DNA from: Caldithrix abyssi
GTDB lineage: Bacteria; Calditrichota; Calditrichia; Calditrichales; Calditrichaceae
Assembly (NCBI GenBank): GCA_011369465.1
Contig: DRQG01000140.1
Span: forward strand, 1 to 50,780
Direction of reading: 5' to 3'
Length of the DNA stretch: 50,780 bases
The stretch's first letter is position 1. Each line of letters starts with the position of its first letter. The notes under the pieces were generated by a model, which was not told the origin of the DNA, made no database searches, and saw nothing but the letters and a program-made list of their open reading frames with translations. The position numbers and the translations under genes were made by a program. Shown here piece by piece: positions 5,983 through 50,780 of the stretch.

Positions 5983-6040
5983 TCCTAAGCTGAATAGATT
6001 AAGGAACGCATAGTTCAAGGAAAATTAACATTTTAAACCA

Positions 6041-7072
6041 ATGAATCATAACACATCCTCCAATCCCGCCGTATTTGTACTTAGCCTCGATACCGAACTG
6101 GCCTGGGGAAATTTTGTACGGGTGAAAGACCCTCTAAAAAAAACTCAGATGTTTCGTACACGGTATTGTATCCAGCAACTGCTCGATTTGTTGGAAACTT
6201 ACAATATTCGTGCCACTTGGGCGGTGGTTGGCCATTTAATGCTGGATGCCTGTCATCCGGACGAAAACGGTGTGAAACACCCTCAGGCAATCCGGCCTGC
6301 CTATAGCTGGCACCCCGGCGACTGGTTCGAGGACGATCCCTGTACATCATTGCAAGAGGATCCGCTGTGGTACGGTATGGACATCGTAAACAAAATCCGT
6401 TCTTGCGCCGTACCCCAGGAAATTGCTTCCCACTCTTTCGCCCATCAAATATTCGGAGACCCGGGATGCCACTGGGCCTGTGCCGATACGGACATCCGGC
6501 TGGCGGTTTTTGCGGCACAGGCATTAAATATTCAAATGGATTCGTTTGTCTATCCTAAAAACAGCATTGCCCATCAAACCGTACTGGCCAAATATGGGTT
6601 CCGAATATACCGTGGCGAAGGAACAGAGTGGTACAATCGATTCCGCCACCCCTTACTACGAAAAATACTCCATTTTCTGGACGATTTGCTGGCCGTGCCG
6701 CCGGCGGCGGATACGTTGCATCGGGATAACGATAACCTGTTTTATACCAACGGTAATATGATGTACCAGTCCATGGAAGGACTGCGTAAGCTCATTCCGC
6801 TTAGGGCCAGGGTACGAAAGGCAAAAATGGGTATAAATAAAGCGGTTGCGCAGGGAAAAATTTTTCATCTGTGGTTACATCCTTTTAATCTGGCCAGCGA
6901 TCCTACCCGCCTTTTGGCCGGATTGGAAGAAATTTTCAAACATGTAAAAAATCTTGAAGATGCAGGACGATTGGTCAATCTGCCGATGAGAGAGTTGCCT
7001 GCATTCTTTGGCATTAAACCAGACCCAGCCGATGTGCTGATCAATGAAGGTACTGCAAATTACATCCGTTGA
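6041..7072 (+). CDS. Polysaccharide deacetylase-like protein, NodB / carbohydrate esterase 4-like.
   Basis: N-terminal VFVLSLDTELAWG is a variant of NodB motif 1 (TFDDG). HSFAHQ matches the metal-binding NodB motif 2 (H-S/T-x-x-H). Read by motif only. Confidence 0.45.
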   Translation: MNHNTSSNPAVFVLSLDTELAWGNFVRVKDPLKKTQMFRTRYCIQQLLDLLETYNIRATWAVVGHLMLDACHPDENGVKHPQAIRPAYSWHPGDWFEDDPCTSLQEDPLWYGMDIVNKIRSCAVPQEIASHSFAHQIFGDPGCHWACADTDIRLAVFAAQALNIQMDSFVYPKNSIAHQTVLAKYGFRIYRGEGTEWYNRFRHPLLRKILHFLDDLLAVPPAADTLHRDNDNLFYTNGNMMYQSMEGLRKLIPLRARVRKAKMGINKAVAQGKIFHLWLHPFNLASDPTRLLAGLEEIFKHVKNLEDAGRLVNLPMRELPAFFGIKPDPADVLINEGTANYIR

Positions 7073-16692: not shown

Positions 16693-16790
16693 GTTGAAAT
16701 ACCGGATTAGTGGAGTATTGGAGTGGTGGAGTTATGGGATTGAAAAAGCAACACTCCAGCACTTCAATACTCCGTCAACCCAAGCCATAG
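16693..16790 (+). repeat. Partial copy A of the intergenic repeat family (GGAGTGG module), forming a long imperfect hairpin.
   Basis: GGAGTATTGGAGTGGTGGAGTTATGGGATTG...ACTCCAGCACTTCAATACTCC forms an imperfect inverted repeat of about 21 bp. Its left arm resembles 27333-27362 in copy C. Confidence 0.55.
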
Positions 16791-16799
16791 GAGATCATT

Positions 16800-17789
16800 T
16801 TGCCTTACAATCCGGATGCTCATCGTTATGATATAATGCACTACCGTCGCTGCGGCCGGAGTGGTTTAAAACTGCCTGTTGTTTCCCTGGGACTTTGGCA
16901 TAATTTCGGACATGTGGATCATTTCGAAAACGCCCGAGCGATGATTTTCAAAGCCTTTGATCTGGGTATTACCCATTTTGATCTGGCCAATAACTACGGC
17001 CCGCCGCCCGGTTCAGCCGAGGAAAACTTTGGCCGCATTTTTCGGAATGATCTCAAACCCTTCCGGGATGAATTGGTTATCTCCACCAAAGCCGGCTGGC
17101 CCATGTGGCCCGGCCCGTACGGCGATTTCGGCTCGCGCAAATATCTGATTGCCAGCCTGGATCAAAGCCTGAAACGCATGGGACTGGACTACGTGGATAT
17201 TTTTTATCACCACCGCCCCGATCCCGAAACGCCTCTGCACGAAACGGCGCTGGCTCTGGATCATATCGTGCACAGCGGACGGGCGCTGTATGTGGGCGTA
17301 TCCAATTATAATCCGCGGCAGACTACGGATATGGCTAAAATTTTAAAGAAGTTAAACACACCTTTTATTATCCATCAACCGAAATATAATATGTTTTACA
17401 GAAACATCGAATCCGGTTTAACGGATGTTTTGAAACGTGAGGGCTTGGGTTGTATTGTTTTTTCGCCTCTGGCCCAGGGGCTGCTTACGGATAAATACCT
17501 TAACGGTATCCCGAACGACTCCCGCGCCGCCAATCCGCATGGATTCTTAAAAAGTGAACACATAACCGGGGAAGCGATAGAGAAAGTAAAAAAACTATCC
17601 CAAATCGCCAATGCGCGCGGGCAAAGCATGGCTCAAATGGCTGTGGCCTGGACGCTGCGCCTTCCGGAAATAACCTCAGCGCTTATCGGTGCCCACACGC
17701 CCGCCCAGATTGAAGAACTGATCGGCGCTCTTGAGCATTTGGATTTCGAGGAAAGAGAATTGCGGGAAATAGAGGCTATATTGGCCTGA
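16800..17789 (+). CDS. Aldo/keto reductase family oxidoreductase (YghZ/Tas-like, related to the Kv-beta subunit).
   Basis: Full-length match in pattern to the AKR TIM-barrel: GLWHNFG, DLANNYG, STKAGW, GVSNY, LAQGLLT. Confidence 0.85.
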   Translation: MPYNPDAHRYDIMHYRRCGRSGLKLPVVSLGLWHNFGHVDHFENARAMIFKAFDLGITHFDLANNYGPPPGSAEENFGRIFRNDLKPFRDELVISTKAGWPMWPGPYGDFGSRKYLIASLDQSLKRMGLDYVDIFYHHRPDPETPLHETALALDHIVHSGRALYVGVSNYNPRQTTDMAKILKKLNTPFIIHQPKYNMFYRNIESGLTDVLKREGLGCIVFSPLAQGLLTDKYLNGIPNDSRAANPHGFLKSEHITGEAIEKVKKLSQIANARGQSMAQMAVAWTLRLPEITSALIGAHTPAQIEELIGALEHLDFEERELREIEAILA

Positions 17790-18950
17790 GTTTTCCCGCA
17801 AATGAATTTATGGCTTAATGGCGCCTCGTACCTGACAGGACGAATTTTAATAATGATTGTTTAAACTCCAACGCGGGACGATGGGATGCCTTTAGCTTTA
17901 TGCAATAGAAAATAACCCCAATCTACGGATGCATACCAAAGAGTAAAAAATACCAGGCCGGTAATATGTTGATGGTTTTATTCCCTTTTTTGATCGTCTT
18001 CGATTCGTTCCACGTTATAATGTAGCCCGTCTTGCTTCCTGCAAATTCAAGGTATTTTATCAATCCCTGAATTTCCCTTTCAAATGTGGTTGGCTCGGAT
18101 AAGGTGTAACACACCTGCAGTGGAATTTTATCTTCCAGTAAAAAATCAATTTCCTGGGAATTGCGAAAATATTGGAGGGACTCTCCTTGAAAGGAAAGAT
18201 GAGTTGCTAAGGTATTTTCTAATTTTTTACTCATATTACGGGAAATTTAAAAGGTTTGCGAATAACTGTGATCGATAAAATACATTTTTCGCTCTTTTTC
18301 TCTGGATATTCTGATTCATGAAAGTATTCAAAATGTTATTATTTCGTTTCCTTAAGGGAACATATAAAAAGGCATGCATCTGACAAGAAGGAATTTGATT
18401 CAGCTTCAAACCGAGCTGTTGTTCAGGGTAATATTTTTTCGGCCGTAGTTTGAATTTTACATGTATTTTTTGGATATCGGTCAAAATTTTACAAGATTTT
18501 AACGATTTCGGAACAAAGGAGGTAAATGATTTAAATAAATCAGAAGACCCTTCGGCACAATTACCAACGGATCTTTTTTTACAAAATAATAACTTTTTGC
18601 CCGATTTTACGGCATCCCGTCCCCTTCGGGACGGTATTGGGGATGGGATCGGGTATTTGTTTTCCCACAAATGAATTTGTGGGCTAAAGGCACCTCGTCC
18701 CTGCCGGGACGAATCTAAATGCCAAATGTTCACAAAAACCATCGCGAAGCGATGGAATGCCTATAGCCCATATTTTCAAATATGGGTAAAATGGAATCCA
18801 CAAACAATAAATTTGTCCCGTAGGGACAATTGAAGAAATAGATGTTCTTGGTGTGTAAAATCATTGTGCCAACCGCAATCCGATTAATGCGGGACGGTAT
18901 TTTAGGGTTTGGGTTGGCGTTTGTTTTCCCCCAATAGAATTATGTCTGTT
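17790..18950. repeat. Cluster of at least three copies of a MITE/REP-like palindromic intergenic repeat.
   Basis: Shared core TTTGTTTTCCC(A/G/C)CAAATGAATTT(A/G)TGG...GGCRCCTCGTMCCTGMCRGGACGAAT at 17793-17850 and 18650-18716, with a partial copy at 18925-18955. Shared upstream arm CCGATT..GGGACGGTATT.GGG at 18602-18650 and 18880-18925. Multiple GTCCC-N4-GGGAC hairpins at 18618, 18697 and 18817. Confidence 0.65.
17923..18234 (-). pseudogene. Remnant of a DUF4143-containing AAA ATPase gene. Only the C-terminal roughly 100 codons remain.
   Basis: The translation (...EIDFLLEDKIP...TGYIITWNE...) resembles the C-terminal DUF4143 region of 'ATPase (AAA+ superfamily)' proteins. The upstream DNA is occupied by palindromic repeats rather than an AAA domain. 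Confidence 0.4.
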
Positions 18951-18989
18951 CCGTCTAAAATCCTTTGTTGTTCAGCCCCATGTTTCAAT

Positions 18990-19529
18990 TTACTGTCCCT
19001 GTCGTTGTTTTGTTATTACTTCTATAATCCCCTGGCAAAACTGCGGCAGGTCGTCCGGACGACGGCTGGAAACCATATTACGGTCGATTACCAGCGGCTC
19101 ATCCACCCATTGCGCTCCGGCGTTGATTAAATCGTCCTTTATACCGGGGGTGGAAGTGCATTTATAACCCTTCATAATGCCTGCTGAAATAGGTATCCAC
19201 CCGGCGTGGCAAATATGGGCGATTAATTTACCGGCATTATGAATTTGGCGGGTCAGATCCAATACTTTGGCATCGCGGCGTAGTTTGTCCGGCGCAAATC
19301 CGCCAGCTAAAACCAATCCGTCAAAATCTTCCGCCCGCATATCAGCGATTCGGGCATCCGGCTTACAGGGATAACCGTTTTTGCCCAGATAAATATTACC
19401 GGTATCCGGGCCGGCGACGATGACTTCCGCTCCGGCTTCGCTCAGGCGAATTTTCGGATACCACAGTTCCAGATCTTCATACATATTTTCTACAAACATT
19501 AACAGGCGTTTACCATCTAACTCACCCAT
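18990..19529 (-). CDS. DJ-1/PfpI family protein (class-I glutamine amidotransferase-like, intracellular protease/glyoxalase-type).
   Basis: 179 aa. Nucleophile-elbow context KLIAHICHAGW with Cys. Overall collinear with PfpI (DGLVLAGGFAPD...). Confidence 0.8.
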   Translation of the reverse strand: MGELDGKRLLMFVENMYEDLELWYPKIRLSEAGAEVIVAGPDTGNIYLGKNGYPCKPDARIADMRAEDFDGLVLAGGFAPDKLRRDAKVLDLTRQIHNAGKLIAHICHAGWIPISAGIMKGYKCTSTPGIKDDLINAGAQWVDEPLVIDRNMVSSRRPDDLPQFCQGIIEVITKQRQGQ

Positions 19530-20322: not shown

Positions 20323-21273
20323 ATGCTGACAGCTATTATTATTTTCGTTATCCTCTTAGGGTTCATTTATGAATACCGCCTGAGAAAGCCGGATCAGCTC
20401 GTTTTATACGAGTCGCGCGGCGTTGTTAAACAGCGGAAGGGAAAGTTCTATCCCCGTCATTTCAGCCTGGCCATCCCGGCTACCATTCATTCTTCCGCGG
20501 TTAAAGTCGAAGCAGAGGCCAAAGGGAAATTACCGATCCTTGTGCAGGTGGCCCTGGCCTGCGCCGCCTCGCCCTCGCAGCTAAGCGAATTGGTGCGCGT
20601 AGGTGGATGGGACAAAAACGCGGTACCCAAAGCCGCCGCCGAACTGGAAATCCTCATTACAAGTTATGTGAAAGAATTTGCCCAGCAGTTTGAAATAGAA
20701 GAATTAAGCGCCGAAAAACTAACCCAGCATCTGAACAAAAAACTGGGACTAACCGTACACGCTCTGGGGCTGGACATCATCAGTTGTCAGGTGCAAGCGG
20801 TAGATCCGCTGGATGAAGAGATAGCCGAAGCCATGCGCAAACAGGAAGCGGCGCGTATTATGGAGCAAACCGAACAGGCCAATCAAAAAGCGCGGGTAGC
20901 CGCGGCGCAAGCCCGTATCGAAGCGGACGACAAAATCGCACAAACGGAGCACCAACTAGCCTTAAAGAAACTGGCTCTGGAAGAAAAACAGCAGCAAAAA
21001 GAGGCTCTTCTGCAAAAGCAGCGGGTGGAAGAAGAAATCAAACGCCGCAAAATGCAGATGGAAGTGGAAAAGAAAGAGGTGGAGTTGCTTAAGGAAAATC
21101 CCGAGCTGCTGATTCTCAGCCCGCAAATAGCGCGTCTGGCCGAAGCCAGTCAAAGTATGCCCAATGCCAAAACGGTGGTTTCCCTTTCTCCCGAACAGGC
21201 CGCGCAAAGCTCGCAAATCATATCCGTCATTCAGGAGTTGCTGCAGAAAATGGTGGAGAAAAAGAAGGAGTAG
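20323..21273 (+). CDS. Membrane-anchored coiled-coil protein, possibly SPFH/flotillin-like.
   Basis: N-terminal transmembrane helix [17 protein letters not shown]-terminal roughly 120 aa rich in Q/E/K/A heptads ([56 protein letters not shown]), as seen in flotillin. Confidence 0.4.
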
Positions 21274-21279
21274 GATATA

Positions 21280-21750
21280 GTGTGTGGAGTAATGGGGAGC
21301 CGGATGCCGGGAATTTGAAATTAGAAATTGGAAACTGGGAACTGGGAATTGGGAACTGGATGCTTGATGCTGGAAATTGGATACTGGTAGCTGGTAATGA
21401 AATGAAAAATTAAGAATGACTCTGTGATCTCGGCGTTCTCTGCGGTTGGATAAAACAGGGGCAAAGGCACAAAGGCACAAAGTACCGCAAGATTTATCTT
21501 GCGCTCAGGGTAGGCAGACAACCCTTCGACCCCGACAAGCCGGGGCAGGCAGAGCTCAGGGAACGGAGGCTGATAACCGATAGCCAAGAATTTCGAACGC
21601 CGATTAACGACTTAAGAACTGACAACTAACAACTGAAAACTGATAACTGATAACTGACAACTGAAAACTGAAAACTAATTACCGATAGCCAACAGCTAAC
21701 AGCCTATAGCCAAAAGCAGATGACCGACAGCTAATAACTGAAAACTAAAA
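21280..21750 (+). repeat. Composite intergenic repeat element, copy B (full length, three modules).
   Basis: Module 1: GGAAYTGG-type tandem run GGAAACTGGGAACTGGGAATTGGGAACTGGATGCTTGATGCTGG at about 21312-21400. Module 2: conserved core GTTGGATAAAACAGGGGCAAAGGCACAAAG..GCAAGATTTATCTTGCGCTCAGGGTAGGCAGACAACCCTTCGAC at about 21440-21530. Module 3: A-rich AACTGA(C/A/T)A and GATAGCCAACAGCTAACAGCC words at about 21570-21750. Confidence 0.75.
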
Positions 21751-21754
21751 ATCT

Positions 21755-24700
21755 ATGCCTCAAAACAATAACAACATAAACCCGCTGGAGTATTTTCGCT
21801 TACGACCGATCAAGGCGGCCAAGGTTTCCGAAATCAGCGAAGCGACGGCTTCCTCGCCTCTGTCGCCGGCCGAACGGGTTAATTTCCACATCGGACACCC
21901 GCTGCAGGAAGAAGAGCTGAGCGCGTTTTATTTTCGTCTAACCGTTTCCGCAGCGGAAGAAGAGGAACACAGCGAAGCAGGCCGGGCTGATTTTCTGCGC
22001 CGTTGCATTGCCCAATGCGCGCCGTATATGCCGCGCGGCGGGTATGCCGCAGCCGACGGACATCCTCTGCTGGAACATCTGCAAAACTGGCTTAAAGGAC
22101 AGAGCGAGCCGCTGGAATACGAATCCGGCCTTCGTCGGGAAATTATTTTCGGCAGCGGCGGCGTTACCGAAAATTTGCGCGTATTGTTTACCGCCCTGCA
22201 GCGATTCCTGCGCTACCAACCGGCGCAGATTTGCCTTTTCCAAAGCGAGCTACCGGAATTTTTACGTAACTTTCCTCCTTTACAGTTTTTATACTATGAT
22301 GAAGCCTCGTCTCTGCCGGATTATCTGCAAAACTTACTAAACGCCCATCCGCAGCGGCCCCTGTTTTTAATCTATCAAACCGTGCTGCCGGAAGCGGTGC
22401 GGCGTGAACTGCGGGAAATCAGTCTGCAAAAGCCCTTGTTTTTTATCGAGCTGAATGACGCGCCCAATCATTTGTCCATGGCCCGTGAGGCGCGCATGCA
22501 GGAAAGGGTACTACGTTTTCTGACGCCCAAAATATTCCACCCGGCGCTGCAGCATCTGTCCACCATATTCATTTTGGGCAGCCACGATTATCTTAAAGTG
22601 CTGGAAACCGTACACTTCGAACTGAAAGGCACGCCGGCCGCCGCCGAAATAGAATGGCTGACTTATGCGCTGGACAACCATATCCTGCCTCCGGAAAATG
22701 AGTCCTCATCTTTGGAGGCTCCGTCCGACCGGCACCGGCATACCAGCCCGTTCATTTCCACCGGTGAGCGGCTCGTGCGCAAATTCGGGGGATTGGTCAG
22801 CGGACAACCGCTTTTACTGGAAACGGCCGCAACCGTGGTAGAGCAATACAGTCAGCGGCAGCAAGAGCGTTTTTCCTCTTTGTATCGTTTCATAAATCGT
22901 TTACCGTTTGTGGAAAGGGAACAGGGTGAAAACCTCGACCATATTCCGGCCTTAAAAATACTGGACACCCTGCTGAAACAACCGCAGGATAAAGCCTTTG
23001 CCGCATTACTGCAGGAAAACTTCCTGTCCGCCTTCCTGCGTCATCACCCGGAATACGAGATGGAACACTGTGCGGTGGTCAGCGGATCATCGCGTACGGC
23101 GCTGAGCCTTTTGGGAAAACATTGCGGAGTCAGCGAGGTGATCAGTCCGGATTTGGGCTGGACGTACGAACACTGTTTCCCGCGGGTCAGCTTTGTTCCG
23201 CTTAAAAGCGATCTGTCGCTGGACAGCGAGGCTATCCTGCAAACCGTGCAGCGCAAAAGGGAAGCGGACGCCCGCTGGACCGAGTACGGCGCGGTGATAC
23301 TCAACAATCCCCACAACGCCAGCGGCAGTGTTTTCGACAGTAGCCGGATGAGCGAGCTGCTGCGCCGGCTGCTGAAAGCCGGTGTGCGGGTCATCGATGA
23401 TCTGTCTTATCAGAATGTAAACCCCGGCGAAACCTGGCGGGAGATTCCCACGCTCAAGCAGCTCACCGCCGAATTGCGGCGCAACGGTTACCTTTCCGAA
23501 GAACAGGCGGCGCGCCTGATTACCGTTCATTCGCTGTCCAAAACGGACGCCTTTGCCGGAGGTCGTCTGGCCGTTATCGAACTTCCCGAAGAGGATTTGC
23601 GGGATAGCTACCGGAAAATCACCGCGCATATCTACCCTAATATCATGGCCGTTTTGCTGGCCTATCTGTTTTACCGCAATCCGCCGGAAAAACTGAACGC
23701 TTACTGGCATTTGCGCAACCGCATTTTTGACCGCCGCATGCAAGCTATCGAGCAGGCCTTGCAGGAACTGCCCGCCAACCGTAATCCCTACGGCATCAAA
23801 GTGAAACGTCCCTCCGGAAGCATGTATCCGCGCATGGTCATCGAACGCCTGCCCGAGGGGCTTTCGCTGGACTGGCTTTCTTCGGGGCTGGCGGTACAGG
23901 GTATCGGGCTGGTGCCGCTGTCCACGTTTTCGCGCACGGCGGAAGGGTACGAGCTGGGACGTAAATCCTTCCGCTTGACGCTGGGCGGCGCTTCCGGCGC
24001 AGCGGAGCTGAAGAACAAAACCCGCCGCGTGATCATCGACCTGAACCGTATGCTGGCCCGCCAGGATGAAGGATACAACCGCAAACGCTTTGCCGTGCGC
24101 ACAACCATCGACGCCGGCCGGGGCTTCTTCCCCGGCGCCTGGGAAGCCTGGAAAGGCATCGATGAGGAAATCCGCCGTTGGGCCGTGCAGGCGCTGGACT
24201 TTTATCTGAAAAAACAACCCGCAGGCAGCGAACGGCATAAATTATTAACCGAATTCGGGAAAGAGTACCTGCCGCATCGATTGGCCGTGTACCGCCAGCG
24301 GCTGCAGGATCGGCTGCATATTGGCGGCCGGTTAATCGAAGCCGGACGAGGGCCGGGCAAACCGGAACTGCTGGAGGTTCTGGAAAGAGAATTTTACAAA
24401 GAGACGCTGCCGGAACGGGGCGAACGGTTCCGCCGCCGTTTATTTGACCGCACGGTGCACCCCACGCAGATGTATGCTCTGCAAAGCGAAGCGGTCTTTA
24501 ACGGGATAATAGATCGCTTGCTTACGGACGGAGATATTTCGCGAGAGATATTACGCCGCGCCGGAAAAACCCTGGCCGAAGAGTATCTGGGCCGCAACGT
24601 ACCCGTCAGTTCAGTGCAGGAGGCCGAGGAACTGCTGCTTGATCTCAACGACGTCATCGCCGCCGAAGAATTTGCCCGCTGGAACGGTGATTTCCGCTTC

Positions 24701-27316
24701 CGACCCTTCCTTTCCTTTTGGGGCGATTGGGACGGCAGTACGCGGCCTTCCGGGCAGGGGCACCGGCTGGTGGCGGCGGTGGTGATGGAAAATGTAAAAC
24801 GCCAGACCAACATACTCAATACGCTGCTGCAAATCGACGGGACGCTGCCGCTGGACGCCGCTCTGCGCCGGGAGATGCTGGCTTTGCCCGCGCACAACAA
24901 ACGTTTCTGGAATCTGCTGAACCGTATTACCCAATTGACCAATCAATTGGAAAAGCGCTACCGCAGCGTTCTGCCTTTCGAAACGGATTACGGCGCCTGG
25001 CGTAAATGGGCTGTGCGCGTTCATCTGCGCCGCGATCCCGTTACCGTACTCTGGCAGCATAACGACCGATTGGAAAAAAAGATGCGCGAGCTGCGCGCCC
25101 GTCGCCGCGAGATGCTGGAATATTATTTTGCGCTCAATAAACGGCTGCGCAAAACTCTGCACGGGCTTTTGCCGCACATCGAAACGCATCTGCACCATAG
25201 GGAAATCGCCCTGAGCGCGGGCGGCTTTCGCAGTTTGCTGGCCCGTTTTGTGCTCACCCCGCGTATTCATCAAAAAATGATTTTGGCCAAAGACGCCTTT
25301 CCCATCAACACCACAGCGTATAATTTAACCGAGTTGAATGAGATTGCCGGCAAATACGGCAATCCGGGCGTGGTGCTGGCGCTGCAAATCAGTATGTCCA
25401 CACAGGCGGAAGCGTTGATCGCTTTGGACCGCAAACTGAACGCCGAGCGCGAACGAACCCTGCGCCGCGAACCGGAGGCTGACATTCCGTCCATTTGGCT
25501 GGTGCCCTTATTCGAAGGCGCCGACGAGGTAAAAACAATAGACGACTATCTGAACAAGCTGTGGGATTACGCCGTGCAGAGCCGCCGCCTGAACCGGAAG
25601 CCGGTGGAACGGCTGTCCGAACTGCTGTGTGAGTTGTTCATCGCCGGGTCGGATTTAAGCCAGCAGGTCGGCCAGTTGAACGGTGCGGCGTTGTACAGAC
25701 AAGCCAAAATGAAAATCATCCGCTGGCTGGCCCGGCGCGATTTAACCGATCAGGTGCGCATTAAATTGGGCTGCGGCGAACCGATGCAGCGACAGGGCGG
25801 CTACTACGACGCGCTGGCAGGGGCGCCCGCTTTTGAAACAAACCCAAGCGCCGCGCGCCGCCTCAAAGAGTATTTGCCTCCTTCCGCGCAAAAAAGCGCC
25901 GAATTTGCCCGCAGCCCCCTGCGCGGCATTCTGGCCGACGGCGACCTGCGCACCTATCAGAGCAACCTGATGGAGCATTTACGCCGCCTGGGTATGGAAG
26001 AACGCAGCCAGATTTTTTATCACGTTATTCAGACGCAAAAGAACTACCACAGCGAACTGGTTAAGGCGGCCGAACCGCTGTTGGATACCCGTCTGCCCTA
26101 CACGGAACGCGGGTTGGGAAATTTGAAAATGCTTATCGGACTGAACGAAGATGAGGCGTTCGGCCGTTTTCTGGAACTGTACACCCGCAATTTCCGGCAG
26201 ATTCTTTACGGCAGCGAGGAAGATGTGGTGGGCATTCATATCGTGTCCTATTTTATTTCCCGCGCCATGCCGGCCCTGCGCGACCGTCCCACGGTTCGGC
26301 CTTCCGCTACGTCCGGGGAAGTGCGCGGCCAGCAGATTATTCAACGTATCGCCAAAACCCTGCCGCTGGCCAATCACGGCAGTCTGCTGCGGGCCATCGG
26401 TCACAACCGCGCGCAAACCTTCGTTCTGGGCGTCAACCAGCTTACCACCGGCCTGTTCCGCGCCCTGCAGGAATTCAGCAACGAAGAAAGCGGCTCTTCC
26501 CGGATCCACGAACGCGTTTTGCCGCAGTTAGCCGTTTACGATATCCTGCGCGCTCTGCGGCTGTATCACGATCCCGAACTACGCTACGCGGCCAAAATGC
26601 AGGAAGCTTTTTCTCCCGGAAATTCATCCTTTTTGCTGTTGCGCGAAGATGTGGACAGTATTCCCTCGTTTTTATACGGCCTGCGCCGTGAGCTGATCCG
26701 CCGACAGGGATTGGACCCGGCCGATTTTTTTGAAGGCGGACGGTTTAAGCCGCAGCTCTTGCCCGCCCTGCGTCCCGATCTGGCCGTTCTGATGCAGGAC
26801 GACCTGTTTAACACCGACGCGGCCGTTTTCTTTTCAGCCATCGGCGGGAAATGGGATGATACCTGGGAAAAAGAGATACGCCGCCTGCTGAATATCCCCA
26901 GACGCATCCGCGAATGGCGGCAAAAAATATGGACATTGATTGAAGAACCGATATTCCAGCAGACGGCCAGTTTCAGAGAGCTGGCCCGGGCGATTCATTT
27001 CTTTAGCGGGAACAAGGACGCGGCCGAGCTGCCCTTTTCGGCCAGTCCGAGCGAGGTATTGCGTATCGGCAGCAGCGTTACCCAGGCACTGCGCGGCACT
27101 GTAGATGACAGCATGCGCCAGTTTCTGCTTTCCGCGGTACAATTTTTAACCCAACTGCCGGGCAAACTGCCCGAAGTGCCCATCGACATCATCCGCGCCC
27201 TGCGCGACGTGGAACGCATCATTCAAATTGAAGAGCAGGCCCTATCCGCCGCCCAGCAGGACGAGCTGCGCTTCTATCTGCTGCAAATGGCCCGGTTGAC
27301 GGGGGAGAACGGATAG
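21755..27316 (+). CDS. Giant 1853-aa multidomain protein: unknown N-terminal region, a class-I/II PLP aminotransferase-like domain, and a C-terminal divergent phosphoenolpyruvate carboxylase (PEPC)-like module.
   Basis: Aminotransferase motifs: NNPHNASG (23301-23324), VIDDLSY, and HSLSKTDAFAGGRLA with the PLP lysine (23529-23573). Collinear PEPC motifs with near-native spacing: TVHPTQ ~ PEPC TAHPTE (about 24451-24468); FWGDWDGS ~ WMGGDRDGN (24716-24739); LVPLFEGADEV ~ VPLFETLDDL (25499-25531); FIAGSDLSQQVG ~ MIGYSDSAKDAG (25637-25672); KLGCGEPMQRQGG ~ FHGRGGSIGRGG (25763-25801). Uninterrupted 5.56-kb ORF at about 60% GC. Confidence 0.6.
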   Translation: MPQNNNNINPLEYFRLRPIKAAKVSEISEATASSPLSPAERVNFHIGHPLQEEELSAFYFRLTVSAAEEEEHSEAGRADFLRRCIAQCAPYMPRGGYAAADGHPLLEHLQNWLKGQSEPLEYESGLRREIIFGSGGVTENLRVLFTALQRFLRYQPAQICLFQSELPEFLRNFPPLQFLYYDEASSLPDYLQNLLNAHPQRPLFLIYQTVLPEAVRRELREISLQKPLFFIELNDAPNHLSMAREARMQERVLRFLTPKIFHPALQHLSTIFILGSHDYLKVLETVHFELKGTPAAAEIEWLTYALDNHILPPENESSSLEAPSDRHRHTSPFISTGERLVRKFGGLVSGQPLLLETAATVVEQYSQRQQERFSSLYRFINRLPFVEREQGENLDHIPALKILDTLLKQPQDKAFAALLQENFLSAFLRHHPEYEMEHCAVVSGSSRTALSLLGKHCGVSEVISPDLGWTYEHCFPRVSFVPLKSDLSLDSEAILQTVQRKREADARWTEYGAVILNNPHNASGSVFDSSRMSELLRRLLKAGVRVIDDLSYQNVNPGETWREIPTLKQLTAELRRNGYLSEEQAARLITVHSLSKTDAFAGGRLAVIELPEEDLRDSYRKITAHIYPNIMAVLLAYLFYRNPPEKLNAYWHLRNRIFDRRMQAIEQALQELPANRNPYGIKVKRPSGSMYPRMVIERLPEGLSLDWLSSGLAVQGIGLVPLSTFSRTAEGYELGRKSFRLTLGGASGAAELKNKTRRVIIDLNRMLARQDEGYNRKRFAVRTTIDAGRGFFPGAWEAWKGIDEEIRRWAVQALDFYLKKQPAGSERHKLLTEFGKEYLPHRLAVYRQRLQDRLHIGGRLIEAGRGPGKPELLEVLEREFYKETLPERGERFRRRLFDRTVHPTQMYALQSEAVFNGIIDRLLTDGDISREILRRAGKTLAEEYLGRNVPVSSVQEAEELLLDLNDVIAAEEFARWNGDFRFRPFLSFWGDWDGSTRPSGQGHRLVAAVVMENVKRQTNILNTLLQIDGTLPLDAALRREMLALPAHNKRFWNLLNRITQLTNQLEKRYRSVLPFETDYGAWRKWAVRVHLRRDPVTVLWQHNDRLEKKMRELRARRREMLEYYFALNKRLRKTLHGLLPHIETHLHHREIALSAGGFRSLLARFVLTPRIHQKMILAKDAFPINTTAYNLTELNEIAGKYGNPGVVLALQISMSTQAEALIALDRKLNAERERTLRREPEADIPSIWLVPLFEGADEVKTIDDYLNKLWDYAVQSRRLNRKPVERLSELLCELFIAGSDLSQQVGQLNGAALYRQAKMKIIRWLARRDLTDQVRIKLGCGEPMQRQGGYYDALAGAPAFETNPSAARRLKEYLPPSAQKSAEFARSPLRGILADGDLRTYQSNLMEHLRRLGMEERSQIFYHVIQTQKNYHSELVKAAEPLLDTRLPYTERGLGNLKMLIGLNEDEAFGRFLELYTRNFRQILYGSEEDVVGIHIVSYFISRAMPALRDRPTVRPSATSGEVRGQQIIQRIAKTLPLANHGSLLRAIGHNRAQTFVLGVNQLTTGLFRALQEFSNEESGSSRIHERVLPQLAVYDILRALRLYHDPELRYAAKMQEAFSPGNSSFLLLREDVDSIPSFLYGLRRELIRRQGLDPADFFEGGRFKPQLLPALRPDLAVLMQDDLFNTDAAVFFSAIGGKWDDTWEKEIRRLLNIPRRIREWRQKIWTLIEEPIFQQTASFRELARAIHFFSGNKDAAELPFSASPSEVLRIGSSVTQALRGTVDDSMRQFLLSAVQFLTQLPGKLPEVPIDIIRALRDVERIIQIEEQALSAAQQDELRFYLLQMARLTGENG

Positions 27317-27317
27317 G

Positions 27318-27580
27318 ATAAGTGAGAAGTTGTGGGAGTGGAGTGATGGAGTTTTGGATTACTGGGTGGGGGGAGAGCGTAGGAATTAGGAACTTGGAAC
27401 TGGATGCTGGTTTCTGGAAACTGGAAATTGGGAACTTGGAACTGGGAAACAATTACGAATCATTCAATTATTTGTCTGCCGTAGGCACGGTGAATTACGA
27501 ATTAAGGGTGATAGCTTACAGCCAATAGCCAACAGCTAACAGCCCAACAACTCAATAACTTAATAACTGACAACTTTTGT
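27318..27580 (+). repeat. Composite intergenic repeat element, copy C (modules 1 and 3).
   Basis: GGAGTGGAGTGATGGAGTTTTGGATT...GGAACTTGGAACTGGATGCTGG...GGAAATTGGGAACTTGGAACTGGG followed by CCAATAGCCAACAGCTAACAGCC...AATAACTGACAAC. Confidence 0.7.
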
Positions 27581-27930
27581 CGCGAAGCAAAGAACCCTCC
27601 GGAAGAATCAATGAAATCGTACTGGTTTAAAGAAGAATGGCCCGGATTATTTTATAATCGGTTGTTGTTCTAATTATAGTTTGTCCATTGCAAAGAAAAT
27701 CCAAACGGTCTATATTATGGTAAACTATGCTATAAATCAAATCTTAGGCTGTATGAAAGCATGGGTATAATATGGAATAGTTATATAAGGTGGTATAATT
27801 GGTATTTTTATTGGCAATGAAAAAAACCGCAATAAACAGCTGATTTTGACCGGCGAAAAATACAACTTAGCAAGAGAAATTGAGACGTTTGTTTAAAAAT
27901 TTTTTTAATTAGAATTCAGGAATAAAACAA

Positions 27931-28281
27931 GTGAAATTATTTTTAATCACCATCGGATTGCTTAATGGAAGCTATATGCTCATAGACGGTGTCTATGTGC
28001 TGGTTAAGGGGAAATACATCGGCCCGGAAAAACCCGGACCGTGGGCCGGTATTTTTGCGGGTCTGGGAATAGACGTCTTTAAACTCGGCCCTTTGTTTGT
28101 GCTGTTCGGATTGCTGTGGCTGATCTTTGTGTACGGGGTGCAAACTTCACAAAATTGGGTTTATGTTTTCGGCCTGATTGTGTCCGCTGCTACCCTATGG
28201 TACCTGCCGTTTGGTACGTTCATTTCCATCATATCTATTGTTCTGCTGCTTTTTTTCAGGCAGAATTTGGGTATCCAATAA
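27931..28281 (+). CDS. Small hypothetical membrane protein (116 aa, about 3 transmembrane helices) with a GTG start.
   Basis: Hydrophobic segments LFLITIGLLNGSYMLIDGVYVLV, LFVLFGLLWLIFVYGV and VFGLIVSAATLWYLPFGTFISIISIVLLLFF. Preceded by a 340-bp AT-rich spacer with TATAAT-like boxes. Confidence 0.45.
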   Translation: MKLFLITIGLLNGSYMLIDGVYVLVKGKYIGPEKPGPWAGIFAGLGIDVFKLGPLFVLFGLLWLIFVYGVQTSQNWVYVFGLIVSAATLWYLPFGTFISIISIVLLLFFRQNLGIQ

Positions 28282-28323
28282 ACAGACAAGAAATAAAAGC
28301 CTATAAAACCTCAGGGATTTCGT

Positions 28324-29634
28324 ATGACAAAGAACAAAAAACTCAGCCTTGCGGAAGTTATTTCCATGGCCGTCGGCACGATGATCGGCGCCAGCATCTT
28401 TTCCATTTTCGGTTTAGGAGCTAAAATTGCCGGAACGGATCTGCCCGAAGCTTTCGTTCTTTCCGGCATTTACGCTTTGGTCGTAGCGTATTCCTACGCC
28501 AGATTGGGCGGAAAAATCATATCCAATGCCGGGCCGATTGCTTTTATTCTAAAAGGAATGGGAGATAGCATTGTCACCGGCGCCCTAAGCATCCTCATGT
28601 GGCTCACCTATGTTATTTCCATAGCGCTTTTTGCCAAAGGTTTTGCCGGCTATTTGCTGCCCTTTATCCGTGTGGAAACAACCCCGCTGGCCTATGCTAT
28701 TGTTGAAATAAGCGTTATTTCCTTTTTTACGGCTTTAAATTTTTTTGGCAGTAAGGCGGTCGGGAAAGCCGAGTTCTATATTGTTCTGATCAAAATATCC
28801 ATTTTATTGGTGTTCATTTTCGGCGGATTTATGACGGTAAACTGGACGACGACCCAGCCGCTTTTGGATGCCATGCATACCAACGGTATGCTAAACGCCT
28901 CCGTGATATTTTTCCTGTCCTATATGGGTTTCGGTCTGATAACCAATGCATCGGAAAATATTAAAAATCCGCAAAAAAATATACCGCGGGCTATCTACAT
29001 CAGTATTTTGTTTGTAATGATGATCTATGTTCTTATTTCTCTGGTTACCATCGGCAATCTGCCCCTGGCGGATATTATTAAGGCGCAGGAAAACGCTCTG
29101 GCCATTGCCGCCAAACCATTTCTGGGACGCTTCGGCTTTATTCTGATTACGATCGGGGCGCTGTTTTCCATTTCCTCAGCCCTCAACGCTTCCCTTTTCG
29201 GCGGAGCCAACATCGCTTATTCATTGGCCAAAGACGGCGAACTACCGGAAGTTTTCGAAAGAAAGGTCTGGTTTAAATCAACTGAGGGTTTGTACATAAC
29301 CGCCGGACTCAGCCTTTCCTTCGCCCTGTTTTTCGACCTGGGCGCCATCGCTTCCATTACCAGTACGGTTTTTACGGTTATTTATATCTTTGTGTTAATA
29401 TCTCATTTTAAATTGCGAAAAGAATACGGCGGCAATACGATACTGCTGATCATTAATCTGATCATTCTCATTGCCGTTTTTATCGCCCTGATGAAGTATC
29501 AATGGAATACGCACAAAAATGCTTTTTACGCCAGCATAGTGACCTTTGCCGCCGCCGCTGTGGTGGAATATGTTTTCAGAAAATTCGCAAAGCGGGATAT
29601 GACCGGCACGAAAATAAGCACCTATCCGGAATAA
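28324..29634 (+). CDS. APC-superfamily amino acid/polyamine permease.
   Basis: 436 aa with 12 predicted transmembrane helices. N-terminal LSLAEVISMAVGTMIGASIFSIFG is the typical APC first helix with a G-rich unwound segment. Confidence 0.8.
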   Translation: MTKNKKLSLAEVISMAVGTMIGASIFSIFGLGAKIAGTDLPEAFVLSGIYALVVAYSYARLGGKIISNAGPIAFILKGMGDSIVTGALSILMWLTYVISIALFAKGFAGYLLPFIRVETTPLAYAIVEISVISFFTALNFFGSKAVGKAEFYIVLIKISILLVFIFGGFMTVNWTTTQPLLDAMHTNGMLNASVIFFLSYMGFGLITNASENIKNPQKNIPRAIYISILFVMMIYVLISLVTIGNLPLADIIKAQENALAIAAKPFLGRFGFILITIGALFSISSALNASLFGGANIAYSLAKDGELPEVFERKVWFKSTEGLYITAGLSLSFALFFDLGAIASITSTVFTVIYIFVLISHFKLRKEYGGNTILLIINLIILIAVFIALMKYQWNTHKNAFYASIVTFAAAAVVEYVFRKFAKRDMTGTKISTYPE

Positions 29635-29789
29635 TCTATGTTGGATGGATACCAATCAAACCTCAAGGCGATAAGAGGTATTTCTTTCCTTTGTTTTGCT
29701 GACAGGTCGATAATCTTCAAATTTTTTAGTGTATTTATGTGGACAGGTAATTGGTACCATTCGAATAAGAGAATATAAAGTACATAGTA

Positions 29790-30235
29790 CCGAGTACAGA
29801 GAAGGTGGTGACGGGTGACAGGAATTTGGAAATTAGAAACTCGGAACTGGGAACTGGTTACTTGATGCTGGAAATTTAATGAAAAATGAAGAATAACCCT
29901 GTGTTCCCGGGGAATGCGCTGGTTGGATAAAGCAGGGGCAAAGGCACAAAGTAACGCAAGATTTATCTTGCGCTCAGGGCAGGCAGACAACCCTTCGACA
30001 GGCTCAGGGTTCGTAGGCTGAGCTCTGCCTGTCCCGACAAGTCGGGATCGAAGCCGATGTCCGTTCCCTTCGACCCCGATTTCATCGGAACAGGCAATGC
30101 TCAGGGAACGTAGGCTGAGCTTTGTCGAAGCCGATGGCCGATCCTTCGACTTCGCTCAGGACAAGTAGCTGATAGCCGACAGCTAATCCAATAACCTAAT
30201 AACCTAATAACCAATAACGTAAAGTGGATTCTCGA
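29790..30235 (+). repeat. Composite intergenic repeat element, copy D (three modules).
   Basis: Module 1 at 29822-29880 (GGAAATTAGAAACTCGGAACTGGGAACTGG..GATGCTGGAAAT). Module 2 at 29910-30000 is near-identical to copy B, including the GCAAGATTTATCTTGC hairpin at 29956-29971. Internal GCTCAGGG..CTGAGC hairpins and CCTTCGAC / CGAAGCCGATG words at 29990-30170. Module 3 at 30160-30225 (AATAACCTAATAACC). Confidence 0.75.
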
Positions 30236-30335
30236 ACACCGGTTAATCTGTCCGCTAGTGGCGGGCGGATATTGATGTGAGACTCGACCGAAGATAAAAG
30301 GTGGATAAAGCGCTTCGTACATCAATTAAAAACAA

Positions 30336-30371
30336 AAAGACCTTCCGGGTTTTCAAAACCCGGAAGGTCTT
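30336..30371 (-). terminator. Rho-independent terminator of the pntAB operon, with a hairpin usable in both directions.
   Basis: Perfect palindrome GACCTTCCGGGTTTT / AAAACCCGGAAGGTC, flanked by A/T runs on both sides. Lies 10 nt beyond the pntB stop. Confidence 0.85.
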
Positions 30372-30380
30372 TTCAATTTA

Positions 30381-31760
30381 TTACAGTTCTTTCACTTCCT
30401 TCACCAACTCGGTAACCATTTTTTTGGCGTCACCGAAGAGCATCATGGTTTTCTGGTCGTAAAACAGTTCGTTATCCTCGCCGGCAAAACCGGGGCTGAG
30501 GCTGCGTTTTACGATCATGATGCTGCGCGCTTTGTCTACATTTAAAATGGGCATACCGTACAGCGGGCTGTCCTTTTTATAACGCGCCGCCGGATTGATC
30601 ACGTCGTTGGCGCCGATAACCAGCACCACGTCGGTGTTCTGGAAGTCGTCGTTGATGTCGTCCATCTCCACCAGCTTATCATAGGGCACGTTGGCTTCGG
30701 CCAGCAATACGTTCATGTGGCCGGGCATGCGACCGGCAACCGGGTGGATGGCATAGCGCACTTCGATGCCCTTTTCTTCCAACAGTTCGGCCAGTTCCTG
30801 CAACACATGCTGCGCCTGCGCCACAGCCAGACCATAACCCGGCACGATTATCACCGATTGCGCCGCTTCAAAGACCAGCGCGGCATCTTCGGCCGAGTAT
30901 TCGGTAACGGTTTTCTTTTCCGTACTCTTGCTTGTTCCGGAGCTGTCAGCCGTACCCACGGCGGCAAACAGCACGTTGGCCAGCGAGCGGTTCATCGCTT
31001 TACACATGATTTGTGTTAGAATAATACCTGAAGCGCCCACCAACGCCCCGCTGATAATCAGTACGTTGTTGGACAGCACAAAACCCGTGGCTGCAGCGGC
31101 CAGACCGGAATAGGAATTAAGCAGGGAAATCACCACCGGCATATCCGCCCCGCCGATGGGGATCACCGAAAGCACGCCCAGCACGGCCGAAATAGCCACA
31201 ATAACTATCAGCGTCACTTCCAGTGAGGCGTCCATGGTAAACATAACGCCCAGGACAACCACCGCCAAAAGCAGCAGGCCGTTTAGCCATTTCTGTCCGG
31301 GAAATACGATGGGCGCACCGGTCATTAAGCCCTGCAGCTTGGCAAAGGCAATCATACTGCCGGTAAAAGTCACCATACCGATCAGCAGGCTGAGCACCAG
31401 AGTGATGCTGGTATCCATCGCGAACACATGACCGCCGTGATGGATATATTCGGAATAGGCCACAAAGGCCGAGGCGATACCGCCGAAACCGTTAAACAAA
31501 GCCACCATCTGCGGCATCTGGGTCATTTCCACCTTTTTGGCGGCCACAGCCCCGATGGCTGCGCCGATGACCATACCGGCGATGATATAGGTGTAATCGA
31601 GAATGCTTTTATCCAGCAGGGTAACCACGATGGCCAGCAGCATACCCAGCATGGCCAGCAGATTCCCGCGTCGGGCCGTTTTAGGCGAGCCCAGGTTTTT
31701 AAGGCCTAAAATGAACAGCACAGCCGCTATCAGATAGGCAATATTCGTAATCGTAACCAT
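30381..31760 (-). CDS. pntB: NAD(P) transhydrogenase subunit beta.
   Basis: 459 aa. N-terminal membrane domain and C-terminal NADP(H)-binding domain (GYGLAVAQAQH..., VIGANDVINPAA), collinear with PntB. Confidence 0.92.
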   Translation of the reverse strand: MVTITNIAYLIAAVLFILGLKNLGSPKTARRGNLLAMLGMLLAIVVTLLDKSILDYTYIIAGMVIGAAIGAVAAKKVEMTQMPQMVALFNGFGGIASAFVAYSEYIHHGGHVFAMDTSITLVLSLLIGMVTFTGSMIAFAKLQGLMTGAPIVFPGQKWLNGLLLLAVVVLGVMFTMDASLEVTLIVIVAISAVLGVLSVIPIGGADMPVVISLLNSYSGLAAAATGFVLSNNVLIISGALVGASGIILTQIMCKAMNRSLANVLFAAVGTADSSGTSKSTEKKTVTEYSAEDAALVFEAAQSVIIVPGYGLAVAQAQHVLQELAELLEEKGIEVRYAIHPVAGRMPGHMNVLLAEANVPYDKLVEMDDINDDFQNTDVVLVIGANDVINPAARYKKDSPLYGMPILNVDKARSIMIVKRSLSPGFAGEDNELFYDQKTMMLFGDAKKMVTELVKEVKEL

Positions 31761-33224: not shown

Positions 33225-34055
33225 ATTATCCTCCTGAGGTTAACACGGTAACAATGCATTGTTGAATGGATGAATTATCGGATTAATGGAATGAAAAAGT
33301 TTCAGAGTACCGTTTTTAGGCATCAATCCAATAATTCGCTGATTCATTAATTTCTTTTTTTTGTACAGACGATGGTAAACGACGGAAGATGGGGATTTTA
33401 TTCCGCTTATAGCATTAAGAGGATTTTTGTGTGTATCGATTCCAACATTTTAGGAGATGGAAGAGTCAGTTATCTTTGTGATGAGCACAGTGATGCGGCG
33501 ATCCTTGGCTACAACCCGGTTGACAACCGCATGCTTTTATAGTCCCTCACCCGTCATGTTGAACTCGTTTCAGCATCCCATGTTTAGGTGACGGGATTCC
33601 GAATCAAGTTCGGAATGACACCGTCTTTTCCGGCACAGAGCTGAGATGAGGAAAACCGATGCCATCGCTTGGAGCGATGGTATCGGTGAAACAGACAACA
33701 AACCCAAGACGGGACAGCCAGCGATACATCGGAGCGTACGGCCGCGCTTCGCTCGCCATAACGACACGACGACCACAACACACCCCATTCTTTTCCCTTC
33801 GCCGGCGAAGGGTGGGGCGTAACGTGGCATCGGTATTGTTTATACGCAGCGAGGTGGGGTGCCCGCCGGTATATTTACGGCACTCTGGGGGCGATAGCAG
33901 AAAAAAATTATCATTGCAAACAGCGATTTACCGTTGGGAAGAATCTTTGCTACCGAGCCAAAGAAAAATTTCACTTTTATTTCCTATCCTCTTGATAGAA
34001 AAATCGTCTATCCCTAAGTTAGCCTAAAAACCACCGTAACGGGAGAACGCTCCAA

Positions 34056-50446: not shown

Positions 50447-50569
50447 AAGAAGTCCTGTATCGTTTTTATATTTATTGATAAATAATGAAAATACAAAGAA
50501 TTGCCAGATTTATCAAATGAGAAAAGTGTGTAAAAATTAGATAGTACAGAGTAATTAGTACTTAGTACA

Positions 50570-50660: not shown

Positions 50661-50780
50661 AAGAATAATGTCACTTGGCATGAACAAAAGCACCATTTGG
50701 CATAGAGCCAATAAATTTAAAAAGGTAGTTTTTCCTGTTCGCGGCGTTTTTGTTCCATTTTTTGTTTTTTAATTTCATCA

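Follow-up and report, generated by a model that had tools for sequence, protein, structure and literature searches.

Intergenic mosaics of heptamer arrays and REP-like palindromes in a Calditrichota genome

The window analyzed here is a whole contig (DRQG01000140.1, 50,780 bp) of a Calditrichota genome, Caldithrix abyssi, assembled from a hydrothermal-vent metagenome. Five of its intergenic regions, called copies A to E (Table 1), carry repeats that an earlier note had grouped as one composite element family with at least five copies. These repeats exist and stand far above chance level, yet they do not amount to five copies of a single element. A and B are genuinely paralogous, C and E have only modules in common with them, and D stands apart. 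Because the repeats are built of 7-base arrays and small hairpin modules, we read them as a lineage-specific mosaic of two known repeat kinds and not as a new RNA gene. It is on balance probable that they resemble bacterial interspersed mosaic elements (BIMEs), combining heptamer arrays of the short tandemly repeated repetitive (STRR) type with modules like repetitive extragenic palindromes (REPs), and that they are selfish or neutral bacterial DNA. The repeat kinds are largely known, and what is new is the phylum and the directional combination.

All the sequences named in the earlier note are present where it had placed them. Tandem Repeats Finder (TRF) detects period-7 arrays, of up to 8.6 units, almost solely in the five named regions. 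In a sequence-blind autocorrelation of the whole window, seven was the only period from 5 to 11 with any match, and all three lag-7 matches lie within A and C. The words CTTGATGCTGGAAA and ATAGCCRACAGCTAA each occur exactly three times, on the + strand and inside the named copies, against expectations of 0.56 (allowing up to two mismatches) and 0.21, respectively. The module had been described as a GGAAYTGG-type tandem run, and here the short word is a weak guide: GGGAAYTGG with one mismatch occurs 40 times window-wide against 28 expected. The repeat signal sits instead in the clustering and in the longer words. As had been noted, all copies lie between open reading frames (ORFs), all are on the + strand, and they have no coding capacity. 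They contain only spurious ORFs, one of which, of 88 aa across the core of A, has no relative among 5.8 billion proteins.

The repeats are not assembly artefacts, because independent assemblies agree. In an independent ENA assembly A, C, D and E are reproduced at 99.9% identity, over stretches of 12.9 kb and 7.3 kb, and part of copy B is covered by a Logan contig, L002. By exact-protein look-ups, the sequence recurs in a Logan assembly and in an assembly of a hydrothermal-vent metagenome (ENA ERZ940665, SRR4453772). PntB is 100% identical to one NCBI entry; its next relatives have about 80% identity or less and mostly carry Calditrichaceae or Calditrichota names. Contigs tend to end at the elements, as expected for multi-copy DNA. 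L002 stops inside copy B, L003 (an ENA JOHN19-1 scaffold from a strain 98.6% identical to the window) stops about 60 nt past copy C, and both L008 and the window stop about 90-110 nt beyond the annotated copy E, inside a long hairpin that continues from E to the contig end. The repeats make up about 30% of the intergenic DNA of the window (about 1.4 of 4.7 kb). Since contig breaks in three assemblies coincide with them, the assembly and annotation of metagenome-derived Calditrichota genomes are affected.

How are the five regions related? A and B are paralogues that align collinearly for about 250 nt, non-repetitive spacer included. Both run from a GAGTA-type lead-in through (GGGAAYT)n and GATGCTGGAAAT into the spacer AATGAAAAATNAAGAAT...GGTTGGATAAA, and from there through an (GGCACAAAG) array and a hairpin to GCTCAGGG.AGGCAGACAACCCTTCGAC. 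They differ by indels of 7, 8 and 21 nt, and the stretch from the hairpin to CTTCGAC is 94% identical over 66 nt. The conserved core that had been ascribed to every copy is confined to this pair; C carries a different core, and E diverges past the spacer. The GCAAAGGCACAAAG duplication, presented as a general feature of the core, occurs in A only. An nhmmer profile of the 5' half of the A/B region matches E (7.8e-8) and C (2.2e-7), through the G-rich heptamer module (module i) only; it has no match to D and none in about 66 kb from related species. C shares this module with E and additionally has the A/C-rich module (module iii). D thus drops out of the family. No local inverted repeat in the window is stronger than D (z = -4.1 for either strand), the D hairpin (16712-16773) lies between a 293-aa ORF and the aldo-keto reductase gene, and an orthologous, sequence-diverged hairpin (z = -2.5) is found at the same locus in the sister species, contig L135 (6346-6419).

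The heptamer arrays have a direction. The 5' arm, of (GGGAAYT)n units, is rich in purines (63-68%) and has little C (7-14%); the 3' arm, of (AACTGAN / ACAGCYA)n units on the other side of the palindromes, is A-rich (39-45%) and G-poor (11-15%). Both arms have the common heptamer register GNNAACT, with the variants GGGAACT and GGGAATT in the 5' arm and GAAAACT, GATAACT and GACAACT, plus ATAGCC/ACAGCT units, in the 3' arm. Because the register is the same (GGGAACT versus GAAAACT), the arms are direct variants of each other and not complements. Minimum-free-energy folds do draw long-range pairing between the two arms, but duplex energies compared with dinucleotide shuffles speak against it (z = -0.2 for A, -1.4 for C and -2.6 for B), and we reject it. 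One AACTGAT unit in the 3' array of A (about 21638-21644) is missing in the independent assembly, and this is the sole indel between two assemblies of the same organism over 12,958 bp. It fits slipped-strand change or population heterogeneity; a difference between assemblers within the repeat is also possible.

The earlier note had called the elements not obviously of a known type. For the heptamer modules this does not hold, as they match the cyanobacterial STRR kind and the (GGGAATC)n kind of Xanthomonas. STRR1, which goes back to Mazel et al. in 1990, is reportedly CCCCAGT. Rehm et al. 2015 (PMC4692102) describe (GGGANTN)n arrays in Xanthomonas, including (GGGAATC)n, and GGGGA(C/T)T arrays in Nostoc, which are intergenic, near the upstream ORF, variable in length, often paired in inverted orientation and of unknown function; the excess of heptamers is ascribed to polymerase slippage. 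Module i agrees with these on unit, position and variability. Its units are likewise heterogeneous tandem 7-mers with a nearly identical unit, GGGAAYT; the arrays are intergenic and follow closely on the upstream ORF, with A and C starting at its stop codon; unit number varies between close relatives (the one 7-nt indel, and the 7 and 21 nt between A and B); and inverted pairing occurs at times, here in D, in the pntA leader and in the hairpin after E. What sets the present arrays apart is the host phylum, Calditrichota, the coupling in cis and on the same strand of the G-rich array to an A/C-rich array of GNNAACT register, and the palindromic modules between the two.

They also differ in G-quadruplex (G4) potential. 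That the G-rich arrays are G4-forming regulatory repeats, like Xanthomonas (GGGAATC)n and Nostoc GGGGA(C/T)T, is suggested by a unit only one base from both published ones. However, the arrays here have fewer than four G3 tracts and therefore no canonical G4: the motif (four tracts of G3+, loops of up to 7 nt) is absent from every copy, and relaxing the loop limit to 12 nt admits E alone. In A, the module-i array contains three G3 tracts in a row; the whole of B contains two. We regard a G4 explanation as highly improbable.

The other component, which makes up the core, is a set of small palindromes. The first, which we call the GTAC-hairpin, consists of GTAC followed by CGCAAGAT-TT-ATCTTGCG and is found in A and B, with GTAA as the tetranucleotide in B. 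In an alignment of 12 copies from the window, L135 and L001 (an Anaerolineales genome assembled from a metagenome), 95.8% of cells are paired, GTAC is nearly invariant, and one pair occurs as GC, CG and AU; the covariation score was reached by none of 500 shuffles. Folding and covariation had been proposed as a check on the elements, and the outcome is divided: the GTAC-hairpin covaries, whereas the whole-element folds of A and C are not above shuffles. The window has two copies of this hairpin in 50.8 kb and L001 at least nine in 8 kb, arranged in tandem alternating clusters and an inverted doublet (6018-6071). A scan of the genome collection for the hairpin plus GCTCAGG gave L001 as its one match. 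In L135 a variant, GTACCACGACATTTATGTTGTG, lies directly past the stop codon of the gene orthologous to the giant (1853-aa) gene of the window. The second palindrome is a unit of about 55 nt, CTTCGAC...GCTCAGGG...CTGAGC, of which A has one and B two in inverted orientation. The single unit of A is inverted relative to the first unit of the B doublet and matches the second, and the doublet forms a 135-nt hairpin (single-stranded DNA z = -4.7).

These features make a REP/BIME-like identity, one of the options in the earlier note, the best supported of them: the palindromes are small, the GTAC-hairpin shows compensatory changes, B has an inverted doublet, and the modules mix as in a mosaic. BIMEs, in the sense of Gilson, are mosaic combinations of REPs with other short motifs. 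The modules here share with REPs, and with the REP doublets that form hairpins (REPINs), the short extragenic hairpin and the compensatory stem variation; a 5' tetranucleotide is conserved here as well, though not the one of described REPs. Shared, too, are the occurrence as singlet (A) and as inverted doublet forming a long hairpin (B), the tandem and alternating clusters (seen in L001), the mixing with other short motifs and the presence or absence at strain level. Bertels and Rainey 2011 (PMC3116915) hold REP doublets to be the replicative unit and singlets to be remnants. Differences remain in the tetranucleotide (GTAC instead of the GTAG or GGAG of described REPs), in that a Pfam scan of the window ORFs showed no cognate REP-associated tyrosine transposase (RAYT), and in distribution. 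Classic REPs are species- or genus-specific, whereas the hairpin and a 19-mer from the B core span phyla (Calditrichota and Anaerolineales) and IMG/VR contigs of 36-72% GC. In this phylum only an 18-nt palindrome had been reported before (PMC5317091); this C. abyssi palindrome, aAACCGTTgaAACGGTTt, is a different motif.

Of the L001 hairpins, some are found downstream of a 1054-aa ORF and others upstream of a T-box leader or in part within it. In the L001 segments 2254-2413, 2436-2705 and 2797-2846, a tandem GTAC-hairpin cluster stands directly upstream of the T-box leader (Rfam, 95.9 bits), one hairpin (2549-2573) is within the leader, and an 8-nt array (AACTATCA / AACTACGT) runs right up to the start codon, ATG, of the 1054-aa ORF.

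Comparison with related genomes shows how quickly the spacers change. In L003 the 3' ends of the permease and pntB genes are joined directly, without the 657-bp segment that in the window includes copy B, unique flanks (65 nt left, about 140 nt right) and a perfect 19-bp bidirectional terminator (30335-30373). The junction (L003 3116-3127) falls within the imperfect direct repeats TTCAAATTTTTTA / TTCAATTTATTA, that is, TTCAA with an imperfect extension, TTCAA(A)TTT. We lean towards a microhomology deletion in L003, because the terminator has been removed as well. In the sister species the giant protein (1855 aa) is 75% identical and synteny is kept from the radical-SAM gene through the giant gene. 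The spacer between the Band_7 gene and the giant gene is 171 nt there versus 481 nt in the window and lacks module i and the core, but an A/C-rich leader containing ATAGCCGACAGCT and AACTGAAAA words is retained and extends to an ATG without a Shine-Dalgarno sequence. Downstream of the giant gene, L135 has a different mosaic: a GTAC-hairpin, a purine-rich hairpin like that of E (38 of 45 aligned columns match) and ACAGCT/AACTGA heptamers. In L006, another relative, an GGGACAAAG array occurs along with GC-rich palindromes of other kinds, an A/C-rich run ahead of a start codon, and TTAGTACTTAGTACA and AATTACGAATGAAGAATTAAGAAT words. The relatives therefore repeat the modules and not the composite, so that mosaic spacers are a lineage trait with fast module turnover; judged from these sequence comparisons, the A/B composite would be specific to this organism.

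Much of the same evidence bears on another explanation, namely that of a single non-autonomous element of 450-660 nt, akin to miniature inverted-repeat transposable elements (MITEs) or palindrome-associated transposable elements (PATEs). It would insert at or next to stop codons and be mobilized by, for example, an IS200/IS605 or RAYT Y1 transposase, with C and E as decayed or recombinant copies. The collinearity of A and B through the non-repetitive spacer, the presence/absence polymorphism flanked by TTCAA(A)TTT direct repeats, the lack of the composite in the orthologous spacer of the sister species and the contig breaks at the elements are all consistent with it. So are the starts of A and C. 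Both begin TAG|GATA at a rare stop codon (TAG ends 5 of 39 genes), and the orthologues end with TAA at the same residue (giant gene) or nearly the same one (Band_7) and diverge right after. Subterminal hairpins without terminal inverted repeats would also fit elements of Y1 transposases such as IS608 and ISDra2. Like MITEs, the repeats are non-coding, dispersed, a few hundred nucleotides long and polymorphic between strains. They differ from MITEs in a directional, modular build; terminal inverted repeats did not emerge from a repeat search, the two arms of A do not complement each other, and A, C and E show no definable target-site duplication. The 657-bp indel looks like a deletion in the other strain, carrying with it flanks shared by no other copy and a canonical bidirectional terminator. 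C has a different core, the ends of the copies do not coincide, the Pfam scan of the window ORFs gave no transposase, and pattern and protein-space searches gave no further copies. A single MITE-like element is therefore unlikely, though it deserves to be kept in view.

Do the elements act at the RNA level? The earlier note had also raised the option of small-RNA genes, against which several results count. The whole window has no Rfam match at the gathering threshold, and in E-value mode the regions 21200-21800 and 27300-30400 gave chance-level matches only (E >= 0.39). Folded as RNA, whole elements are not more stable than shuffles (z = +1.3 for A, +0.5 for C), and among A, B and C folding is significant only for the palindromic core of B. 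The core is also missing from the corresponding spacer of the sister species. The elements do not seem to form a new RNA gene, defense system or regulatory system.

Regulatory or insulator elements were the remaining option in the earlier note. A further explanation is a cis-acting mRNA expression element, in which array and A-rich leader tune the gene that follows and the number of repeats serves as a volume control, like the hmw heptamer repeats of H. influenzae, or in which the core is a small RNA. The elements are indeed on the strand that codes for co-directional genes. Copy A ends directly at the ATG of the 1853-aa gene, for which neither species has a Shine-Dalgarno sequence, the A/C-rich leader with its ATAGCCGACAGCT and AACTGAAAA words is kept in the sister species, and the leader of A has a length polymorphism of one unit. 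Heptamer repeats in 5' regions are, according to PMC12721329 and PMC8262952, an established mechanism of phase variation. That said, the explanation fits A only: the genes around B are convergent, and another 350 nt of AT-rich sequence separate C from the gene that follows. The heterogeneity of the arrays lowers the slippage rate, no promoter-like enrichment was seen, and the Rfam and folding results and the orthologous leader, which has neither module i nor the core, likewise count against it. We consider such an element improbable.

On the preferred explanation, a BIME-like mosaic of known repeat kinds, the heptamer arrays would grow, shrink and diversify by replication slippage, being G-rich and C-poor on the coding strand by the upstream stop codon and A/C-rich and G-poor towards the downstream gene. 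The palindromic modules (the GTAC-hairpin, and the CCCTTCGAC..GCTCAGGG unit, singlet in A and inverted doublet in B) would sit inside the arrays as members of families common to distant phyla. Once the lineage had separated from the sister species, the combination of about 250 nt would have been duplicated so that it now occupies at least two sites (A and B), with parts of it reaching C and E. The route we favor is single-strand mobilization of the hairpins by a RAYT or IS200/IS605-type enzyme together with recombination between arrays. The elements would probably be co-transcribed with the flanking genes as untranslated spacer, and any effects on expression, such as those of the unstructured A-rich leader of the 1853-aa gene or of the 3' hairpins, would be secondary.

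Parts of the palindromes occur far beyond this lineage. The 19-mer CCCTTCGACAGGCTCAGGG of the B core is present verbatim in at least 120 unrelated viral or proviral IMG/VR contigs (L160-L279), at loci with a GC content of 36-72%, and CTTCGACTTCGCTCAGGAC, also of the B core, in 20 IMG/VR contigs. Control 18- and 19-mers from the same elements gave no matches or, once, four matches, which all fall in a single homologous phage gene. No consensus is common to the flanks of the widespread modules. Among the IMG/VR matches listed, 22 of 132 modules have an inverted partner within 150 nt and 26 a direct partner, and at least one CCCTTCGACAGGCTCAGGG module appears to lie within coding sequence (L195). 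A three-part layout as in the window is clearest in L154 (2405-2542), where (GACGGTC)n, CCCTTCGACTCCGGTCAGGGAC and (GCAATCC)n follow each other; L143, L153, L168 and L184 have similar layouts. In the 120 IMG/VR contigs listed, heptamer arrays are the commonest short tandem repeat, with 51 runs versus 16 for lag 8; lag 14 gave 33 runs and the other non-multiple lags tested at most 8 each. Verbatim sharing of modules across phyla and viral contigs is unexpected for REP-like DNA, which is normally species-specific, and it makes the spread of such tiny sequences directly testable. The literature yielded nothing on the 19-mer, on CTTCGACTTCGCTCAGGAC or on the palindrome signatures, and the viral occurrence of the 19-mer is the most intriguing loose end of this work.

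Cyanobacterial small dispersed repeats (SDRs), after Elhai et al. in 2008, are reportedly hairpin modules of about 20-30 nt, apparently mobile, in genomes that also have heptamer arrays. By that description the modules here resemble them as very small hairpins; the association with arrays at the level of sites is not significant in the IMG/VR sample. It is conceivable, if rather doubtful, that the GTAC-hairpin, CCCTTCGACAGGCTCAGGG and CTTCGACTTCGCTCAGGAC jointly represent undescribed, cross-phylum, ultra-small mobile DNA. These would be modules of about 20-30 nt, sometimes inserted in frame, often with inverted or tandem partners and spread horizontally, possibly on phages, and the A/B composite would be a lineage-specific mobile element built of them that inserts at stop codons (TA|GGATA).

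Several observations weigh against the mosaic explanation that we prefer. No Y1_Tnp domain or any other transposase was found among the ORFs of the 50.8 kb in the Pfam scan. The four or five copies all have the same strand, and two of them start precisely at TAG, a rare stop; pure neutrality does not predict this. The 657-bp indel may be a deletion and so no evidence of mobility, and the classic REP tetranucleotide is GTAG, not the nearly invariant GTAC. Heptamer arrays are not enriched within 120 nt of the 19-mer in the 120 IMG/VR contigs listed (ratio 0.7); we therefore claim no site-level coupling, and the pairing of arrays with palindromes may be coincidental. Finally, exact-pattern scans did not find the A/B core junction in GTDB representative genomes or in JGI metagenomes, where the pattern GGCACAAAGTANCGCAAGAT gave four chance matches only, so that the composite may be very young or rare. 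In a viral 14-mer scan the matches listed were at chance level, and the scan was uninformative, and blastn against plasmids gave low-complexity A-rich matches for A and none for B. If the preferred explanation is correct, STRR-type heptamers and REP-like palindromes extend to the Calditrichota.

Table 1. Positions of the repeat copies and their parts in the window
Feature	Position	Strand	Description
Copy A	21274-21754	+	Fills whole spacer from Band_7 to 1853-aa gene; begins at stop codon (TAG|GATA), ends before ATG at 21755
A module i	21306-21400	+	G-rich, C-poor heterogeneous heptamers GGGAAYT / GATGCTK / GNNNCTG; ends in GATGCTTGATGCTGGAAAT
A non-repetitive spacer AATGAAAAATTAAGAATGAC..GGTTGGATAAAACAGGGG	21401-21461	+	Collinear with B, in part with E
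A octamer array (CAAAGGCA) x2.6	21462-21482	+	Related array in relative L006
A REP-like hairpin	21482-21503	+	GTAC + CGCAAGAT-TT-ATCTTGCG
A single palindromic unit	21504-21575	+	GCTCAGGG..CCCTTCGAC-CCCGACAAGCCGGGG-..GCTCAGGGAACGGAGGCTGA
A module iii	21576-21754	+	A-rich, G-poor heptamers (AACTGAN, 8.6 units) plus (ATAGCC/ACAGCT) units
Copy B	29786-30235	+	Between convergent genes for amino-acid permease and pntB; collinear with A up to 30001
B REP-like hairpin	29951-29972	+	GTAA + CGCAAGAT-TT-ATCTTGCG
B inverted doublet of CTTCGAC..GCTCAGGG..CTGAGC unit	29994-30129	+	REPIN-like 135-nt hairpin
19-mer CCCTTCGACAGGCTCAGGG in B doublet	about 29991-30009	+	Widespread in IMG/VR contigs
B extra CCTTCGACTTCGCTCAGGAC module, then module iii	30130-30235	+	Module iii: ATAGCCGACAGCTAA, then (AATAACCT) x4
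657-bp segment	29721-30377	.	Copy B, unique flanks and pntB terminator; missing from 98.6%-identical strain
Copy C	27317-27580	+	Begins at stop codon of 1853-aa gene (TAG|GATA); GGAGTGRT words first
C G-rich heptamers	27372-27452		
C core	27453-27508		AATTACGAAT x2 + TGCCGTAGGCA hairpin
C module iii	27509-27575		
Copy E	50540-50672	+	(TAGTACN) heptamers, G-rich heptamers ending GATGCTTGATGCTGGAAA, spacer start
"Copy D"	16693-16790	+	Inverted repeat, arms 16712-16732 / 16753-16773, 21 nt, 90% complementary

The genes flanking the repeats are ordinary. The window has a polysaccharide-synthesis cluster, radical-SAM, aldo-keto reductase, DJ-1, DUF2147 and SPFH genes, the gene of the 1853-aa protein, an amino-acid permease gene, pntAB, PAS/response-regulator genes and sugar epimerase genes. 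The 1853-aa protein (21755-27316) has a central pyridoxal phosphate (PLP) aminotransferase domain as its sole Pfam domain and is kept full-length, at 47-51% identity, in metagenome-assembled Ignavibacteria, Melioribacter, Bacteroidota and Aminicenantes genomes. Its gene has a GC content of 53-59% versus about 45% in the rest of the window, and it lacks a Shine-Dalgarno sequence.

In L135 (1-5500) the GFO oxidoreductase gene adjoins sulfate adenylyltransferase, APS (adenosine 5'-phosphosulfate) kinase and radical-SAM genes. In the window, the GFO gene is at the right end, and the left end has a 14-kb low-GC polysaccharide cluster with the radical-SAM gene behind it. Because the GFO gene adjoins the radical-SAM region in L135, the two window ends (1 and 50780) may be neighbors across a repeat-induced gap, or the polysaccharide cluster may be an insertion. 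Just upstream of the start codon of this GFO/IDH/MocA oxidoreductase gene, six single-nucleotide polymorphisms (SNPs) within 20 nt (50449-50468) separate two otherwise 99.9%-identical assemblies, and the other allele has the more Shine-Dalgarno-like AAGGAAAC.

Between the aldo-keto reductase and DJ-1 genes (17790-18990) there are two small ORFs, of 103 and 168 aa and about 38% GC, for which Pfam gave no match; the segment that holds them is missing from the sister species. Associated with this segment is another repeat (GTTTTCCCRCAAATGAATTT...GGACGAAT) in three copies (17787-17851, 18656-18720 and 18920-18941).

The pntA leader has a long hairpin directly upstream of the Shine-Dalgarno sequence (window 33237-33345, - strand), which is kept in three related species; the other loci are L004 7523-7612 and L129 2197-2281. 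The arms differ (GAAUUAUUGGAUUGAUG..., GUGAAUUGUUGAAUUGGUGAA..., GCGAAUUG..CGGAUGA...) and pairing is preserved. In the window the hairpin has z = -3.5 in the sense and -1.0 in the antisense direction, and it has no Rfam match; it is a possible conserved leader structure. The divergent intergenic region in which it lies (33225-34055, 831 bp) is full of other palindromic modules as well, such as GTCATTCCGAACTTGATTCGGAATCC, ACCGATGCCATCGCT/AGCGATGGTATCGGT and CCCTTCGCCGGCGAAGGG.

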